42,710 bases of DNA from a virus (lineage: Duplodnaviria; Heunggongvirae; Uroviricota; Caudoviricetes). Location: positions 1-42,710 of the IMG/VR virus record IMGVR_UViG_2667528074_000004, one strand, 5' to 3'. The position numbers and the translations under genes were made by a program. Below, in pieces: positions 1,935 through 37,791 of this stretch. The notes under the pieces were generated by a model, which saw nothing but the letters and a program-made list of their open reading frames with translations, had not been told where the DNA came from and made no database searches. The number at the start of each line of letters is the position of its first letter. Within the stretch, counting starts at the first letter, position 1.

Positions 1935-3164
1935 CTACGATAATGTAACAGTGATATCTGATTCCTGAATGGTTGGAACCTGGTCTATGCCCATAGTCAC
2001 AGCAGGTCCGTATAGCGAACCATCGAGAGAGACTTCAAGAGACAAAATGCCAACTGTATCAGGAGATATTGAAATAACAGGAGCATAGTATTTACCAGCA
2101 TTTATCGTAGAACCAATTCGTGCCTTTCCAATACCCTCATACCCTCCATTGAATACAGTGGCAACTATTTTCTTTACTTGCTTAGTTATATCACTTGGGG
2201 GGTTTAGTGAGGCATCAATATTTACCTTAAAGTAAACCCGAGTAGGTGATGCCTTTTGCCATTGCATTACGTAAGATGGATATGGTGGCATGTAATTAAC
2301 GTTATCGTAAACAGTGAACGTTGTATCACCATTCATATTGGCTCCGGGGTTATAAGTATTGAATATTGACTCAGCAACATCAGTATCAGCACCGCCATAA
2401 ACACAAATATAAACAGAATGCGCAAGAATCGGGAAATTCGTTGTTCCTTTATTTACTGTTTCTGCAGTTCTGTTTGACCATACGTAAGCATCAAGCACAC
2501 CATCAGTCGCAAGTAACGCGGCTAATGTAGATGCGTCCTGATTTCGACTGTTTCTGGCAACTGATTGTCTCCGGCGAGTTTCAAAGGCGATCCGTGATTC
2601 AACATCAACACCAACGACTCCAGGGCTAGTATTATTTACAGCATCCCACCCGGAAACGGCTCGATAAATCTGGTTCAGTGAACCTGCGGCACACGGAATC
2701 GGCCCGGTTGTTGTGTTGACAAACTGCACATCAACAGAGCCTGATGAGGGTATTACAGCATTATCAATTGACTGATATATATACCCGCTCGTATCCACAG
2801 CGGTACTCCCTGCTGGTATTGTTGTTCCAACCTGACCAATGCATGTTGCTGTAACAACTGTCCCCTGAGCAGCGATCCGCTCCATAAAGTAAATCCGACC
2901 AATCCCGTCCTGGAATCTGCCGGTTGAAAAGTCAGGGTTAATTTGATTAAACAAACAAAGAAGCTTGTCGTATTCCTGAGCGATAATTTCAGTGTCAGAC
3001 TGGGCGATCTGCCCTTGCGGTGAACTCAGTGACTGACTTGCGCCACCGCCAAGGGCCGTTGACATGTCTGTAAGTCTTCCCGCCAATACATCTGCTATAT
3101 CGGGGACTGAAAGACCGTTTTCAGTGATGGTTACATCAGGAACAGCCGTATTTAATGTCGTCAT
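1935..3164 (-). CDS. Baseplate J-like protein
   Basis: 409-aa ORF, synteny with Mu gp47 / baseplate J family. Confidence 0.6.
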   Translation of the reverse strand: MTTLNTAVPDVTITENGLSVPDIADVLAGRLTDMSTALGGGASQSLSSPQGQIAQSDTEIIAQEYDKLLCLFNQINPDFSTGRFQDGIGRIYFMERIAAQGTVVTATCIGQVGTTIPAGSTAVDTSGYIYQSIDNAVIPSSGSVDVQFVNTTTGPIPCAAGSLNQIYRAVSGWDAVNNTSPGVVGVDVESRIAFETRRRQSVARNSRNQDASTLAALLATDGVLDAYVWSNRTAETVNKGTTNFPILAHSVYICVYGGADTDVAESIFNTYNPGANMNGDTTFTVYDNVNYMPPYPSYVMQWQKASPTRVYFKVNIDASLNPPSDITKQVKKIVATVFNGGYEGIGKARIGSTINAGKYYAPVISISPDTVGILSLEVSLDGSLYGPAVTMGIDQVPTIQESDITVTLS

Positions 3165-3520
3165 AAGGTGGCCTGTGCAATATTACCATTGATATCTGTA
3201 ACGCGGATTGTCCCGCGAGTTGTGCGTGTATTCTTGTCAAAGAAAACTGACGCCAGAGCATCCTCAACGACGGGTAATTTGAGTGCTTCAGCCTGCATTT
3301 TCTGAGCAATAAAACCAGGAGATGGTCGCCTGCCAAGAACTTCTGCCTTCCATGGGATCCCAAGTGTATTGTCGTAATAACACTCTCCTGAAAACACCAG
3401 GCATGCACTGGCGACATCCTGAGCAACAGAATATGATTCTTCTGCGATCGCCAGATTGCCATTTCCGTCAAGCGTCAAGTCCCACGTAGATGTGTCCAGT
3501 TGCATAGTTCTGTATGTCAT
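3161..3520 (-). CDS. Baseplate wedge protein (gp46/W-like)
   Basis: 119-aa ORF, 4-nt overlap with downstream J-like gene; synteny. Confidence 0.45.
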   Translation of the reverse strand: MTYRTMQLDTSTWDLTLDGNGNLAIAEESYSVAQDVASACLVFSGECYYDNTLGIPWKAEVLGRRPSPGFIAQKMQAEALKLPVVEDALASVFFDKNTRTTRGTIRVTDINGNIAQATL

Positions 3521-4209
3521 GTCGGTTTATCCGTTGCATTGGAATTTATTGTTGCCCCACCACTTTGTACACCTGAAACAGAATGTTTGTGATTGTTATA
3601 ATTGTCCCTTAAATTTTTAACAGTAGATGACTGTGAACTTGCGTTATCCTGAATATCACCGCTAACTTTAAGTAAAGGAGTATTCATGTTGACTCCACCA
3701 GGAGCATCAATATTTAACGATGAACATTTAATATTTAGTGGGTTAGGCGTGGTTATGTTTATTGCACCATCAGCAAATTCAATGAATTGAGTAGGTGCAA
3801 TATTTAATACCCCACCAAGATAAATTGCATCAGATTTACTGTGTCGCCTTTTGCTTCCAGGTACTGATTCTTTACGATTTTTTCTTACCAGTGATGTGTC
3901 TTTGTCGCAGACCGCAATCAGACCAATATCACCTGCCACAGGGTCCATAATTACAGCACTGTTACCTCTCTGTAACCGCCATACAGGAATATCATATAAA
4001 ACCGAGTTGGAAATCATTTTTCCTGTACGGTCTGTTCTGGTAAGCAAAGGAAGAGCATCAACAACTAAATCTGGTGCCTCACCCCTGACTTCCTGAACTT
4101 TTGCTAACTCAATGAAGAAATATCCAGACATCAGCATCTCAAAAATATATTCCTGAGATTGAGCCTCACTTACCTGAGCAGGAGTTGGAGTAAATAGTTG
4201 CTTATCCAT
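3517..4209 (-). CDS. Baseplate spike/assembly protein (V-like)
   Basis: ORF-track ORF 3517-4302 trimmed to internal ATG at 4209 (MDKQLF...) that directly abuts the stop of the upstream gene at 4202-4204. Confidence 0.45.
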   Translation of the reverse strand: MDKQLFTPTPAQVSEAQSQEYIFEMLMSGYFFIELAKVQEVRGEAPDLVVDALPLLTRTDRTGKMISNSVLYDIPVWRLQRGNSAVIMDPVAGDIGLIAVCDKDTSLVRKNRKESVPGSKRRHSKSDAIYLGGVLNIAPTQFIEFADGAINITTPNPLNIKCSSLNIDAPGGVNMNTPLLKVSGDIQDNASSQSSTVKNLRDNYNNHKHSVSGVQSGGATINSNATDKPT

Positions 4210-23691: not shown

Positions 23692-24185
23692 TGTTGCCCC
23701 CACAAACAGACTTCACGCTCAATCTCACGGCGAGTCATCAGCCCTTTCCATTGCTTACCGCCAGCGTATGTCCAGCGCCGTAGCTGATCACATGCGCCTT
23801 TGATATCGCCCTGGTTTATTTTGCGAAGAAGCGTCGATGTTCTGAAATTTCCAGCACCAACGTTGTAAACGAACGAGTAAAGAGCGCCGCGCGTTGTTTC
23901 CGGTATATCGACTTTGATGTACGGGTTAATTTGTCTGGCGACAGTGGCAAGGTCTTTATTCAGGAGGGCTTTGCATTCTGCTTCGGTATACGTTTTACCG
24001 AGCATAATGTCTTTTCCGGTATGCCCGTAACATACAGTCCATACACCAACGATATCTTTATATGGTATGTAGCTGACGCCTTCCAGACCATCGTTACCAC
24101 TTGGGCCAGTGATTAACACAGATGCTATAGCAATAGCCCCGCCACCAATAGCCGCAGCAACGGCTTTTCGTAATGATGGAGGCAT
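23688..24185 (-). CDS. R: SAR endolysin (phage-21 R21-type lysozyme)
   Basis: 165-aa ORF; N-terminal Gly/Ala-rich signal-anchor-release segment [20 protein letters not shown]; closely matches phage 21 R as recalled. Confidence 0.85.
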
Positions 24186-31480: not shown

Positions 31481-32197
<717 letters not shown>

Positions 32198-32309
32198 TCG
32201 GCAAGGTGTTCTGGTCGGCGCATAGCTGATAACAATTGAGCAAGAATCTTCATCGAATTAGGGGAATTTTCACTCCCCTCAGAACATAACATAGTAAATG
32301 GATTGAATT

Positions 32310-33149
32310 ATGAAGAATGGTTTTTATGCGACTTACCGCAGCAAAAATAAAGGGAAAGATAAGCGCTCAATAAACCTGTCTGTTTTCCTTAATTCTCTGC
32401 TGGCTGATAATCATCACCTGCAGGTTGGCTCCAATTATTTGTATATTCATAAAATCGATGGAAAAACTTTTCTCTTTACCAAAACAAATGACAAGAGTCT
32501 GGTTCAGAAGATAAATCGCTCTAAAGCTTCAGTTGAAGATATTAAGAACAGCCTCGCAGATGACGAATCATTGGGATTCCCATCTTTTTTGTTTGTTGAA
32601 GGCGACACCATTGGTTTTGCCAGAACTGTTTTCGGGCCGACCACATCCGATCTGACAGATTTTTTAATCGGGAAAGGAATGTCATTAAGCAGTGGAGAGC
32701 GCGTTCAGATAGAGCCACTGATGAGGGGAACCACCAAAGACGATGTTATGCATATGCATTTCATCGGCCGAACAACGGTGAAGGTAGAAGCCAAGCTACC
32801 TGTATTTGGCGATATATTAAAGGTCTTAGGGGCAACAGATATTGAAGGGGAGCTTTTTGACTCATTGGATATAGTCATTAAGCCAAAATTTAAAAGGGAT
32901 ATAAAAAAGGTTGCCAAGGATATTATTTTTAACCCGTCACCTCAATTTTCAGACATTAGCCTGCGGGCAAAAGATGAGGCCGGAGATATTTTAACAGAAC
33001 ATTATCTATCAGAAAAAGGCCATCTCTCAGCGCCTCTGAACAAGGTCACCAATGCTGAGATAGCTGAAGAGATGGCATATTGCTACGCAAGAATGAAAAG
33101 TGATATACTGGAATATTTTAAAAGGCAGGTGGGCAAAGTTAAGGATTAA
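32310..33149 (+). CDS. rexA: RexA (Rex abortive-infection/exclusion system)
   Basis: 279-aa ORF directly downstream of cI; size and position as in lambda. Confidence 0.85.
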   Translation: MKNGFYATYRSKNKGKDKRSINLSVFLNSLLADNHHLQVGSNYLYIHKIDGKTFLFTKTNDKSLVQKINRSKASVEDIKNSLADDESLGFPSFLFVEGDTIGFARTVFGPTTSDLTDFLIGKGMSLSSGERVQIEPLMRGTTKDDVMHMHFIGRTTVKVEAKLPVFGDILKVLGATDIEGELFDSLDIVIKPKFKRDIKKVAKDIIFNPSPQFSDISLRAKDEAGDILTEHYLSEKGHLSAPLNKVTNAEIAEEMAYCYARMKSDILEYFKRQVGKVKD

Positions 33150-33164
33150 TTATCAGGAGTAATT

Positions 33165-33599
33165 ATGCGGAACAGAATCATGCCTGGTGTTTACATAGTA
33201 ATAATTCCTTACGTTATCGTAAGCATTTGCTATCTCCTTTTCCGCCACTACATTCCTGGTGTTTCTTTTTCAGCTCATAGAGATGGTCTTGGGGCGACAT
33301 TGTCATCATATGCAGGAACCATGATTGCAATCCTGATTGCTGCCTTGACGTTTCTAATCGGAAGCAGAACGCGCCGACTGGCCAAGATTAGAGAGTATGG
33401 GTATATGACATCGGTAGTTATTGTCTATGCACTTAGTTTTGTTGAGCTTGGAGCTTTGTTTTTCTGCGGGTTATTGCTTCTTTCCAGCATAAGCGGCTAC
33501 ATGATACCCACTATCGCCATCGGCATTGCCTCTGCATCGTTCATTCATATATGCATCCTTGTTTTCCAACTATATAATTTGACCAGAGAACAAGAATAA
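33165..33599 (+). CDS. rexB: RexB membrane protein
   Basis: 144-aa ORF with four hydrophobic segments; lambda position. Confidence 0.85.
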   Translation: MRNRIMPGVYIVIIPYVIVSICYLLFRHYIPGVSFSAHRDGLGATLSSYAGTMIAILIAALTFLIGSRTRRLAKIREYGYMTSVVIVYALSFVELGALFFCGLLLLSSISGYMIPTIAIGIASASFIHICILVFQLYNLTREQE

Positions 33600-33625
33600 C
33601 CCGGCCTCAGCGCCGGGTTTTCTTT
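33598..33625 (+). terminator. Terminator after rexB (t-imm)
   Basis: Stem CCCGGC / GCCGGG with loop ctcagc followed by TTTTCTTT. Confidence 0.7.
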
Positions 33626-33775
33626 GCCTCACGATCGCCCCCAAAACACATAACCAATTGTATTTATTGAAAAATAAATAGATACAACTCACTAAACATA
33701 GCAATTCAGATCTCTCACCTACCAAACAATGCCCCCCCCCTGCAAAAAATAAATTCATATAAAAAACATACAGAT

Positions 33776-33837
33776 AACCATCTGCGGTGATAAATTATCT
33801 CTGGCGGTGTTGACATAAATACCACTGGCGGTGATAC
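33776..33837 (+). promoter_or_regulatory. Left operator/promoter: OL3 33776-33792, OL2 33796-33812, OL1 33820-33836; PL -35 ttgaca 33810-33815, -10 gatact 33832-33837
   Basis: AACCATCTGCGGTGATA, TATCTCTGGCGGTGTTG, TACCACTGGCGGTGATA read directly. Confidence 0.9.
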
Positions 33838-33878
33838 TGAGCACATCAGCAGGACGCACTGACCACCATGAAGGTGAC

Positions 33879-33908
33879 GCTCTTAAAAATTAAGCCCTGA
33901 AGAAGGGC
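33879..33908 (+). promoter_or_regulatory. nutL (boxA CGCTCTTAA 33879-33887, boxB GCCCTGAAGAAGGGC 33894-33908)
   Basis: Matches lambda nutL as recalled. Confidence 0.85.
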
Positions 33909-34018
33909 AGCATTCAAAGCAGAAGGCTTTGAGTAGCGCGAAATGCAGCTGCAAGACAGCAACCGTGGAGATAAGCATCACGGCGCGTTACTCAAAGCTA
34001 ACTGACAGGAGAATCCAG

Positions 34019-34345
34019 ATGGATGCACAAGCACGCCGCCGCGAACGTCGCGCAGAGAAACAGGCTCAATGGAAAGCAGCAAATCCACTGTTGGTTGGGG
34101 TAAGCGCAAAACCAGTTAACCGCCCTATTCTCTCGCTGAATCGCAAACCGAAATCACGAGTAGAAAGCGCACTGAATCCGATAGACCTTACGGTGCTGGC
34201 TGAATACCACGAACAGATTGAAAGCAACCTGCAGCGTATTGAGCGCAAGAATCAGCGCACATGGTACAGCAAGCCACGCAGTGAAATGGGTGTGACTTGT
34301 GTTGGTCGCCAGAAAATGAAATTAGGCAGCAAACCACTTATTTGA
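34019..34345 (+). CDS. N: Antiterminator N (lambda-type; C-terminal tail differs from lambda N as I recall it)
   Basis: Start MDAQARRRERRAEKQAQWK (arginine-rich boxB-binding motif); track ORF start at 33929 rejected because PL/nutL lie inside it. Confidence 0.9.
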   Translation: MDAQARRRERRAEKQAQWKAANPLLVGVSAKPVNRPILSLNRKPKSRVESALNPIDLTVLAEYHEQIESNLQRIERKNQRTWYSKPRSEMGVTCVGRQKMKLGSKPLI

Positions 34346-34955: not shown

Positions 34956-34967
34956 GACGGAGGATAT

Positions 34968-35936
34968 ATGAGTGAAGTAACAGATTTAGTTGTTATTGAA
35001 AAATCAAATGCAATGACTGTATTTCAGTCTGCCGACCAGATTGAAGAAATCCTTCAAAAGGTTGAACGTGAAGTTATGTCCTTTGTGCCTGATATCACAA
35101 CGGCAAAGGGCAGAAAGGAGATCGCTTCTCTGGCATATAAAGTTGCGCAGACGAAAACATATCTCGATGGTCTTGGCAAAGACCTTGTGTCTGAACTGAA
35201 GGAAATTCCAAAGCTAATTGATGCCAACCGCAAGACAGTGCGTGATCGCCTTGATGAGCTGAAAGCCAAGGCGCGCCAGCCTCTTACTGATTATGAGGAA
35301 GAACAGGCGCGGATTAAAGCCGAAGAAGAAGCTAAGGCAGCAGCTGAAGCTCTCGCAAAGCAAATTGAGTCTGACCATGAAATAGCGATTTTGATGGATC
35401 GAGAATTTGACCGCCAAAGAGAAGAGGCAAGACTCAAAGCGGAGCAGGAAAAGCGAGAGCATGAAGAACGCTTAAAAAGAGAAGCTGAAGAGAAAGCCAG
35501 AGCAGAAGCCGAAGCAAAGGCAAAAGCCGAAATTGAAGCAGCAGCAAGGCGAGAAGCAGAAGCTAAGGCCGCAGCGGAACGTGCAGAGCGTGAACGCATT
35601 GAAGCCGAGCAACGAGCACAGCGCGAAGCAAAAGAGGCAGCAGAACGAGCTGAAAGAGAAAAGCAGGCGGCAATTGAAGCAGAACGCCGAAAAGCACAGG
35701 AGGAGGCTGAACAAATCCGTCGCGATGCTGAAGAAAAAGAGCAAGCCAGAATAGCAGAAGAAAAAAGAATCAAGGACGAAGAAGAGCGTAGAGCAAAGGA
35801 TAAAGCTCACCGGAAAGACGTAAATAACAAAATACTTGCTGACCTTATCAAGGTTGGCGCATCAGAAGATGTTGCTAAAAATATCATAACAGCCATCGTA
35901 AAAGGCGAAGTATTCGCAACAAAAATAACCTACTAA
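34968..35936 (+). CDS. Coiled-coil protein with TolA-like Ala/Glu/Lys/Arg-rich repeat region
   Basis: SD GGAGGA then ATG 34968 (MSEVTDLVV...); central 190 aa low-complexity helix (KAEAEAKAKAEIEAAARREAEAKAAAERAERE...). Confidence 0.55.
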   Translation: MSEVTDLVVIEKSNAMTVFQSADQIEEILQKVEREVMSFVPDITTAKGRKEIASLAYKVAQTKTYLDGLGKDLVSELKEIPKLIDANRKTVRDRLDELKAKARQPLTDYEEEQARIKAEEEAKAAAEALAKQIESDHEIAILMDREFDRQREEARLKAEQEKREHEERLKREAEEKARAEAEAKAKAEIEAAARREAEAKAAAERAERERIEAEQRAQREAKEAAERAEREKQAAIEAERRKAQEEAEQIRRDAEEKEQARIAEEKRIKDEEERRAKDKAHRKDVNNKILADLIKVGASEDVAKNIITAIVKGEVFATKITY

Positions 35937-36485: not shown

Positions 36486-37091
36486 ATGAGCAAAGAATTT
36501 TACGCAAGACTGGCAGCTATTCAGGAGAATCTGAACGCGCCAAAGAATCAATACAACTCATTCGGCAAATATAAATACAGAAGCTGCGAAGACATTCTTG
36601 AGGGTGTTAAGCCGTTACTGAATGGCCTGTTTTTATCAATCAGCGATGAAGTTGTGTTGATTGGTGATCGGTATTACGTGAAAGCCACGGCAACTATTAC
36701 CGATGGCGAAAACAGTCATACGGCAACCGCTCTTGCACGAGAGGAAGAAAGCAAGAAAGGAATGGATTCTGCACAAGTTACGGGAGCTACAAGCTCTTAT
36801 GCACGCAAGTATTGCCTCAATGGTTTGTTCGGCATTGATGATGCGAAAGATGCAGATACCGACGAGCATAAACATCAGCAGAACGCAGCAGCAAAGCAAT
36901 CAAAGCCATCACCTACATCTGAACAGGTTCTAAAAGCATTCACTGACGCAGCAATGCAGAAAAACACCGTAGAAGAGCTTAAACAGGCGTTCGCCAAAGC
37001 GTGGAAGATGCTCGAAGGCACACCGGAGCAGCACAAAGCGCAGGACGTTTACAACATCAGACGAGACGAATTAGAAGGAGCTGCTGCTTAA
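36486..37091 (+). CDS. erf: Erf single-strand annealing recombinase (P22 Erf-like)
   Basis: Start MSKEFYARLAAIQENLNAPKNQYNSFGKYKYRSCEDILEGVKPLL matches P22 Erf as recalled. Confidence 0.85.
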   Translation: MSKEFYARLAAIQENLNAPKNQYNSFGKYKYRSCEDILEGVKPLLNGLFLSISDEVVLIGDRYYVKATATITDGENSHTATALAREEESKKGMDSAQVTGATSSYARKYCLNGLFGIDDAKDADTDEHKHQQNAAAKQSKPSPTSEQVLKAFTDAAMQKNTVEELKQAFAKAWKMLEGTPEQHKAQDVYNIRRDELEGAAA

Positions 37092-37474
37092 TGGCACATT
37101 CGATTACTGTAAGACTAAACAAGCCCGCAAGAGAGTTTCAGGCCGGGGAAAATATCGGATTCAACATCCGTGCTGGCGTTCAGTATTACGATCGCCAGAC
37201 AAAAAAGAAAGAATGGACAAACTACAGCGCCGTTGTATTTGCCAAGCCGGGAGCGCAAGCGGATTACTACCGTAGCGTTCTGGTTGAAGGAGGCATTGTA
37301 GAAATTACCGGAGAAAACATCAGGGTTGATGTTTATCAGGGGCAAAATGGTCAATCAATCACTCTTGAATTACTGAATGCAAAGATTGGATTTGCAACCT
37401 CAGGAAACAGCCAACAGCAGCAAAGTAGCAATCATCAAAATCATCCTGAATACGACGATTCAATTCCCTTCTAA
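37091..37474 (+). CDS. Small SSB-like protein with SSB C-terminal tip motif
   Basis: 127-aa ORF, TAATG-coupled to erf; ends ...QQQQSSNHQNHPEYDDSIPF resembling the E. coli SSB tail ...DDDIPF. Confidence 0.5.
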   Translation: MAHSITVRLNKPAREFQAGENIGFNIRAGVQYYDRQTKKKEWTNYSAVVFAKPGAQADYYRSVLVEGGIVEITGENIRVDVYQGQNGQSITLELLNAKIGFATSGNSQQQQSSNHQNHPEYDDSIPF

Positions 37475-37497: not shown

Positions 37498-37791
37498 ATG
37501 CCAGCGCCTCAGTATGGTGCGGATGACCCGCGCCGCTGTTCCGGCAATTCCGTATCGGAGGTGCTGGATAAATTCAGAAAAAACTACGACCGGATAATGT
37601 CGCTACAGCAGGAAACGAAAGAGGAAAAGGAATTTCGCCACTGTATATGGCTTGCAGAGAAAGAAGAACGCGAGCGAATTTACCAGACATCAATCCGACC
37701 ATTCCGCAAAGCCACATATACCCACTTCCCTGAAATTGACCCGCGCCTGCGTAATTACCGCTCACGCTATGGCGCTATCAGTAATGACTGA
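37498..37791 (+). CDS. abc2: Abc2-like anti-RecBCD protein
   Basis: 97-aa ORF downstream of erf as in P22; size and context; sequence match recalled only approximately. Confidence 0.45.

Follow-up and report, generated by a model that had tools for sequence, protein, structure and literature searches.

We analysed a stretch of 42,710 nucleotides (nt) from a virus of the Caudoviricetes (positions 1 to 42,710 of the IMG/VR record IMGVR_UViG_2667528074_000004), hereafter the window, and in particular a gene that lies between erf, which encodes an Erf-family single-strand annealing protein (SSAP), and the anti-RecBCD gene abc2 (Table 1). The gene encodes a protein of 127 amino acids (aa) of the same family as gp40 of phage HK97. 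From sequence comparisons and a structural model, this protein is very probably a single-stranded DNA (ssDNA)-binding protein (SSB) with an oligonucleotide/oligosaccharide-binding (OB) core, a short linker and a host-like C-terminal tip, which is coupled to Erf and works in recombination.

The 127-aa protein runs from MAHSITVRLNK to SSNHQNHPEYDDSIPF; the two ends of the translation are MAHSITVRLNKPAREFQ...SGNSQQQQSSNHQNHPEYDDSIPF. An open reading frame (ORF) list gave a longer frame from a GTG at 37001, which we rejected as the gene: nearly every full-length homologue begins MAHSIT or MHSIT, and the true start is therefore the ATG at 37091. The start of the gene could be located in 79 related IMG/VR loci, and all 79 kept the TAATG overlap between the stop of erf and this start. 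A reading made earlier from the DNA letters alone (the sequence-only reading) had described a 127-aa ORF at this place overlapping the erf stop through TAATG, and the sequence agrees with it in every detail.

Table 1. Position of the SSB gene, its parts and the associated features in the window.
Feature	Position	Strand	Evidence or remark
gp40-type ("SSB-1b") ssDNA-binding protein gene	37091..37474	+	127 aa plus stop; stop TAA = 37472-37474
erf stop/SSB start overlap TAATG	37089..37093	+	read in sequence; erf stop TAA (37089-37091) and SSB gene ATG (37091-37093) share an A; translational coupling
AGGAG Shine-Dalgarno of the SSB gene	37076..37080	+	10 nt before the ATG, read in sequence
OB-fold core (predicted), residues 1-103	37091..37399	+	
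Disordered linker (predicted), residues 104-119 (SGNSQQQQSSNHQNHP)	37400..37447	+	pLDDT <50 at 108-119; varies among homologues
Acidic C-terminal tip EYDDSIPF, residues 120-127	37448..37471	+	conserved as [FWY]-D-D-x-I/P-P-F in the family
A6 run inside the SSB gene, frameshift-prone	37201..37206	+	HF4s copy one A short
erf, Erf-family single-strand annealing protein, 201 aa	36486..37091	+	Pfam ERF E 1.6e-44; PHROG_155 Erf-like
Erf C-terminal ~55-aa module (last 56 codons), candidate partner-binding domain	36921..37088	+	homologous modules on other annealases
abc2, anti-RecBCD (RecBCD-hijacking) protein, next Rec-module gene	37498..37791	+	Pfam Anti-RecBCD_p2 E 5.6e-62
PL-like promoter TTGACA-17-GATACT	33810..33838	+	promoter scan; heads the early-left operon with N, kil, erf, ssb and abc2

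Predicted Fold and Remote Homology to SSB

We aligned 40 members of the gp40 family and used this alignment for AlphaFold2, for profile comparison and for the conservation of single positions. The AlphaFold2 model had a mean predicted local distance difference test (pLDDT) value of 85.6, with residues 1-100 mostly above 90. Strands were predicted at residues 3-8, 14-18, 21-34, 39-51, 69-74, 76-84, 87-95, and 98-103, and a helix at residues 55-63. Together they form an OB barrel that has two long hairpins and carries its helix after strand 3 and before strand 4, and the predicted topology is that of SSB-type OB folds (b1-b3, helix, b4-b5, with long L23 and L45 hairpins). The OB fold that the sequence-only reading had wished to see checked by structure prediction was therefore obtained, and with a confident core.

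In a Foldseek search against the PDB, all of the top 50 matches were bacterial or mitochondrial SSB or PriB (best E 2.3e-5; template modelling (TM) scores of 0.4-0.54; identity of about 10-19%), and the structure matches of the model in BFVD were phage SSBs. These moderate structural scores fit a divergent member of the SSB fold and not a close relative. No structural similarity to the T7 gp2.5-type SSB was found. We also considered and set aside the class of SSBs that trigger Retron-Eco8, since the SECphi4 and T7 triggers are gp2.5-like and belong to a different fold class.

Profile comparison pointed in the same direction as the model. Aligned with hhalign to E. coli SSB, whose sequence we verified to be identical to that of PDB 1EQQ/4MZ9, the family gave a probability of 92.6% and an E-value of 4.6e-7, with residues 32-93 matched to residues 41-101. 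Y32, W42, F50, and Y82 fell opposite W40, W54, F60, and W88, which in the structure of E. coli SSB with ssDNA are the four aromatics stacked against the strand. In the 40 members, Y32 and F50 were invariant, W42 was present in 39 (one had Y), and position 82 was Y or F in all 40. Like E. coli SSB, the protein joins a basic core (isoelectric point 8.96) to an acidic tail.

Linker Length and C-Terminal Tip

The core of about 103 aa compares with about 112 aa in E. coli SSB, and the S/N/Q/H-rich linker of 16 residues with about 55. The protein had been judged too short for a canonical SSB (about 178 aa); it is indeed short, but because of its linker, the core not being reduced. All the parts of an SSB are there, the linker in a minimal form, and the protein is not a truncated SSB. 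Within the family, proteins were between 123 and more than 200 aa long, the linker accounting for the whole of the difference, and the tail that follows the core measured 24-84 aa (median 28). The E. coli SSB linker has a role in cooperative binding and, by analogy, the short linker may lower cooperative binding relative to the E. coli protein.

The sequence of the linker was not conserved. The end of the protein, on the other hand, was: a terminal [IPVALM]-P-[FY] behind two or three acidic residues was found in 82 of the 107 homologues with an intact core. The remainder were mostly partial or frameshifted, had single substitutions (ILF, ITF), or belonged to a metagenomic subgroup with a Q/P-rich ending. 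Similarly, x-P-[FYW] closed 67 of the 118 full-length representatives of clusters at 50% identity, and several others ended in IPF plus one residue or with a single substitution. Many family members (e.g., P0094) end in DFDDDIPF, identical to the tip of E. coli SSB, whose C-terminus is MDFDDDIPF. As 82 of 107 homologues kept the tip while the linker varied, the terminal motif is not there by chance, and a hypervariable linker ahead of a conserved end peptide is the signature of a functional SSB tail. The likeness of DDSIPF to the SSB tip in the sequence-only reading was well founded (EYDDSIPF against DFDDDIPF), and the conservation of the motif among homologues, which that reading had proposed as a check, was confirmed by both counts.

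The metagenomic subgroup consists of gp40-family proteins of 154-182 aa (P0091, P0095, P0097, P0103, P0106-P0108, P0117, and P0118; locus L253) that end in ...NFQQPR, ...FNQPQR, or ...FPQHQG instead of an acidic IPF. P0118, the one tipless member whose locus was examined, comes after RecT and YqaJ. These proteins may have a different partner or face a different host tip.

Association With Annealases and Exchange With a Canonical SSB

Of 80 IMG/VR loci that had a near-identical Erf, all 80 carried the SSB gene after erf, and it was intact in 77 of them. When 79 loci were centred on the SSB gene itself, a full-length Erf of the window type was present upstream in 77. Downstream, abc2 was absent or the locus was cut in 23 of the 79, while the order erf, SSB gene, abc2 was recovered in the other 56, as in the window and in HK97; this is the location of a gene of the recombination (Rec) module.

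The association extended to divergent members of the family. Some of them directly follow Erf, in Chimaeribacter and other prophages and in a T1-like phage with the series ExoVIII-Erf-SSB; P0087 lies in an Erf operon with three small genes between erf and ssb. Others come after RecT plus a PD-(D/E)XK or YqaJ nuclease, in a Vibrio phage and a metagenomic phage, and one after a Sak4/AAA_24 protein in a Leminorella prophage. Only P0099 had no recognisable annealase nearby. Thus, eight of the nine divergent members examined were in an annealase operon, with three annealase families represented, and the stop and start codons usually overlapped or abutted.

In the IMG/VR prophage loci L102-L106 and L108 (around positions 3109-3582), a canonical SSB of 153-157 aa (MASRGVNKV...DFDDDIPF; PF00436 E 1.1e-40) fills exactly the slot of the gp40-type gene, behind an Erf that matches the window Erf at 80-85% identity over its last 55 residues. 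This is a functional displacement in situ by a non-orthologous, or very distantly related, protein. Two types of SSB, both tipped with IPF, are therefore found behind the same Erf, which is strong contextual evidence that the 127-aa protein does the job of an SSB. Interactions between SSAPs and the C-terminal tail of SSB have been regarded as general (PMC12054835).

A C-Terminal Module Shared by Annealases

The Erf of the window and that of P22 are 75% identical overall, but the identity is unevenly distributed: 92% over the first 135 aa and 38% over the last 55. This C-terminal segment corresponds to a module with the consensus LKxFTxAA..S..EL..AF..AW..L.G.....KA.DVY.IR..EL, which recurs at 38-51% identity at the end of annealases built on four distinct cores: ERF, RecT (one case being a RecE-RecT fusion), Sak4/AAA_24, and Rad52_Rad22 (window and loci L005, L326, L327, L328, L007, and L265). 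At 41-51% identity, it ends the RecT of phiEt88, the RecE-RecT fusion of phiV10, and the Sak4/AAA_24 proteins of Erwinia phage EhrS_59 and of the Leminorella prophage, in which the next gene is a gp40-type SSB. The Sak4 of HK620 is without it. The module occurs in phages of Enterobacterales and perhaps in a few Vibrio phages, and it is a portable C-terminal appendage of the four annealase families.

The window variant is followed by an IPF-tipped SSB, the P22 variant by Abc1. Loci L095-L099 combine a P22-like Erf N-terminal domain (99%) with a window-type C-terminus, followed by a gp40-type SSB. Among 70 loci linked to Abc1, the P22-type variant was present in 68, whichever the core: three of the 70 have an Erf core, and the rest a protein of 235 aa in which a P22-type C-terminal segment is joined to a Rad52_Rad22 core (Pfam E 1.7e-24). 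We considered a strict covariation between the variant and the downstream gene as a sign of specific pairing; this idea is weakened by the modules found in phages without an SSB gene of their own. Because the module also occurs in such phages, its common partner could be the tip of the host SSB, which would fit the published dependence of annealases on the C-terminal tail of SSB (PMC5928155; PMC12054835).

Going further, we tentatively entertain a scheme, drawn from these sequence patterns and more doubtful than probable, in which the module would be a receptor for the IPF tip of SSB and the gp40-type mini-SSB a dedicated hand-off adaptor. The host-like tip would let one module use either the phage or the host SSB, and the P22-type variant, linked to Abc1, would have switched partner. 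If this were true, module and SSB would form a portable two-part interface explaining the host range of recombineering systems and usable for engineering it. The module shared by four families is in any case a testable candidate for the long-sought docking site of the SSB tail on phage annealases.

A homologue search with the 56-aa module of Erf gave fragments only, and the module profile did not find the C-terminal domain of lambda Red-beta when run against the PDB. All that the profile matched there, at the last helix of Erf (37040-37088), was a short part of the coiled coil of colicins E2/E3/E9 around residues 338-362 (QAKAVQVYNSRKSELDAA; E 5.6e-4), probably a fortuitous resemblance between helices.

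Family Identity, Distribution and Database Records

At the DNA level, identity was 97-98% to HK97, HK022, HK106, HK544, Sf101, CUS-3, and many Stx-converting phages. Phages mEp213 and PhiR12_2 encode exactly the same protein (100% identity), and over 127 aa the identity to HK97 gp40 is 94.5%; gp40 belongs to the same family, occupies the same place between erf and abc2, and differs in nothing essential. PHROG_44 ("single strand DNA binding protein") matched the protein with an E-value of 1.8e-28. In a study of lambdoid Rec modules, the predicted structure of HK97 gp40 was found to resemble bacterial SSBs; its SSB nature was deduced from the AlphaFold3 fold and it was named "SSB-1b" (Subramaniam, Casjens, Smith et al., Genome Res 2025; PMC12315714). 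The protein is thus of a kind already known, its family being annotated by PHROGs and described in that study as an SSB-like protein of the Rec module. The C-terminal tip of HK97 gp40 is unmentioned in the main text of the same paper.

The search for homologues of the 127-aa protein returned 320. The gp40 family is small, with 211 clusters at 50% identity among 1.84 billion representatives, and a search of IMG/VR with the family alignment retrieved near-identical loci only, which added no diversity and were used for the coupling counts. The gene is common: of 5,426 complete E. coli genomes, 579 contained it, annotated by NCBI as "hypothetical protein," and it is carried by HK97, HK022, mEp phages, and Stx-converting phages. 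Its labels in RefSeq/GenBank are mostly "hypothetical protein" or "Gp40."

Some records hide the gene or its tip. In the HK97 reference (NC_002167, around 23786-23807 of the record and 4060-4081 of locus L001; compare 37454-37474 of the window), gene 40 contains a single additional C that the window and HK022 lack. Its 3' end reads GATTCCAATCCCATTCTGATTTAG, which is translated as DDSNPILI*, and gp40 is annotated with 129 aa; without the extra C, as in locus L019, one reads GAC GAT TCA ATC CCA TTC TGA, that is DDSIPF*. The extra C is either a sequencing error or a real mutation that destroys the tip; the tip of the prototype is therefore masked, and it is intact in the window. In HF4s (MT833387; locus L002, 2661-3056), the 94-aa "ssb protein" and the 36-aa "putative phage protein" that follows it are two halves of the gp40 gene, the former being a frameshift fragment because one A was lost from the A6 run. 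Other copies in databases and prophages were frameshifted elsewhere, and the gene decays in some prophages.

Comparison With Known Systems

With E. coli SSB and the canonical phage SSBs (PF00436/TIGR00621; "SSB-1" of Sf6 and ES18), the 127-aa protein shares the OB core, the four aromatic positions, and the succession of basic core, disordered linker, and acidic IPF tip, and the two are interchangeable in the slot behind the same type of Erf. It differs from them in scoring below the curated thresholds, in an identity of about 18% in structural alignments and, relative to E. coli SSB, in its linker length and in the lack of conservation of His55. Distant members of its own family are the T1-family SSBs (T1 gp27-like, e.g., that of vB_ecoS_OzMSK) and the SSBs of Vibrio phage RecT operons, about 30% and 50% identical, respectively. 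Their genes likewise come behind that of Erf, or behind those of RecT and a nuclease, and the proteins end in QFDDDIPF or GWDDEPPF. Unlike the 127-aa protein, they reach 144-154 aa in total, with a longer, Q-rich linker, and belong to lytic or non-lambdoid genome contexts.

HkaK of HK620 ("SSB-2") occupies the same slot in the order annealase, ssb, abc2 and ends with a PPF/IPF-type hexapeptide. It was described as the cognate SSB of Sak4, and its last six residues (NDYPPF) were needed to stimulate Sak4 (Hutinet et al., 2018; PMC5928155). HkaK differs in its length (195 aa) and in its partner, a RecA-like Sak4 that has no C-terminal module of the Erf type. We rejected it as a relative of the 127-aa protein (hhalign probability 0.3%), the resemblance being functional and positional only; HkaK is the best functional model of the way in which the 127-aa protein may work.

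Proposed Role of the gp40-Type SSB

We propose that the protein would be made early, from the PL operon, in translational coupling with Erf. During lytic growth, RecBCD modified by Abc2, or else replication forks or DNA ends, would expose phage ssDNA, which the protein would coat. The tip would then serve as a docking peptide bringing in Erf, most likely via the C-terminal module of about 55 aa, and/or host enzymes that interact with SSB; Erf would load, displace the SSB, and anneal complementary strands. The gene structure, the predicted fold, the remote homology, the aromatic positions, the tip, and the linkage to and exchange within annealase operons are what the analysis shows; ssDNA binding, the oligomeric state and the binding partner of the tip are what we infer.

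Several observations weigh against an SSB acting with Erf. The protein had no Pfam match at E<=1 and scored 16.4 bits with TIGR00621 (ssb, NCBIfam), below the cutoff of 53.95; a sequence profile search of the PDB gave at best an E-value of 0.55, for a Streptomyces small SSB. His55 of E. coli SSB, a residue of the tetramer interface, aligns with Thr43, so that the protein may or may not form a tetramer. The IPF tip is missing in some family members, including several of those linked to RecT. Homologues of the Erf module are also present in phages that have no SSB gene of their own, which weakens a specific pairing of Erf with the phage SSB. As a minority of phage and prophage copies are frameshifted, including at the tip in the HK97 reference, the gene is dispensable and evidently not essential. 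Finally, the SSB-1b proteins have been without experimental study (PMC12315714). Concerning the missed thresholds, four relatives of the gp40 family also failed PF00436 (the best, P0099, with an E-value of 0.1), and the misses mean a divergent protein, not one that is no SSB.

The sequence-only reading had offered two roles, a minimal OB-fold SSB partnering Erf and a decoy for the host SSB interactome. The former is supported by the predicted fold, the remote homology, the aromatic positions, the tip and the constant adjacency to annealases. As a decoy, the protein would mainly display a host-like tip that titrates or blocks ExoI, RecQ, RecO, PriA, Ung, and others, ssDNA binding being inessential. 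The tip is of the same class as that of the host, down to the exact host sequence in P0094 and others, the short linker would make a compact carrier for it, and the neighbouring abc2 encodes a host-takeover factor. A pure decoy would, however, have no need for a basic 103-residue core in which every ssDNA-stacking position is conserved, and conservation of this core greatly exceeds that of the tail taken in its entirety. Moreover, the slot is interchangeable with a canonical SSB, and the analogous protein of HK620 is a bona fide SSB. We found no support for the decoy and regard it as quite improbable as the main role, while noting that the two roles are not mutually exclusive, since a DNA-bound SSB with a host-like tip could also compete for partners.

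The protein could instead be a general SSB for replication or ssDNA protection, next to Erf only through the mosaic structure of the modules. The occurrence of the Erf module in phages lacking an SSB, the context of P0099, the three small genes in the operon of P0087, and the loci that are cut or have no abc2 downstream would agree with this view. We consider it unlikely, given the annealase operons of three families around eight of the nine divergent members, the TAATG coupling in every related locus, and the fact that the gene belongs to the Rec module within the PL operon, away from the O/P replication genes; furthermore, lambdoid phages replicate with the host replisome and host SSB, as is generally known. 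An analogue of P22 Abc1, modulating RecBCD together with Abc2, would account for the position between erf and abc2 and for the start overlapping the erf stop, both of which are shared with abc1. Yet Abc1 is unrelated in sequence and has no SSB tip; BLASTP gave no alignment with it at E<=100, so that we also rejected the 127-aa protein as a truncated or related Abc1. Abc1 goes with the other variant of the annealase module, and all the evidence from fold and homology leads to SSB, which makes this possibility extremely improbable.

Once the 127-aa protein is recognised as an SSB whose partner-docking tip is intact, a common gene gains the annotation that it lacked, and the organisation of Erf-type Rec modules without a nuclease is explained as Erf + SSB + Abc2. 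Such a compact SSB could be co-expressed with Erf in recombineering. Two records can be corrected, those of HK97, where a 1-nt indel hides the tip of gp40, and of HF4s, where the "ssb protein" is a frameshift fragment. The present analysis newly documents that the tip is conserved and maps the ssDNA-contacting aromatics; also new are the masked tip of HK97, the in situ exchange with canonical SSB, and the C-terminal module shared by annealases.

The Surrounding Operon

The genes of the region lie on the + strand. From about 31.5 kb, we identified cI, rexA, and rexB, the PL-like promoter, N, several small genes and kil, then a 56-aa ORF, erf, the SSB gene, abc2, a DUF2737 gene, further early-left genes, xis, and int (cI, rexA, rexB, N, and kil were identified by Pfam). 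No convincing + strand terminator was found between erf, the SSB gene, and abc2. This arrangement is that of a lambdoid early-left (PL) operon, from a phage or a prophage, and the window combines an immunity region of the lambda type with a recombination module of the HK97/HK022 type. Such a junction, with the immunity genes and PL at 31484-34345, is nothing unusual among lambdoid mosaics. It does, however, put Erf, the SSB and Abc2 in one prophage with RexAB, an abortive-infection system believed to detect intermediates of recombination or replication.

Upstream of erf, the window also encodes a 323-aa protein with a very high content of charged residues (E/A/K/R) (34965-35936), for which a coiled coil is suggested by composition only. 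It had no Pfam match and matched PHROGs of unknown function; the HF4s record labels its homologue "similar to phi80 Agt / Gam antitoxin."

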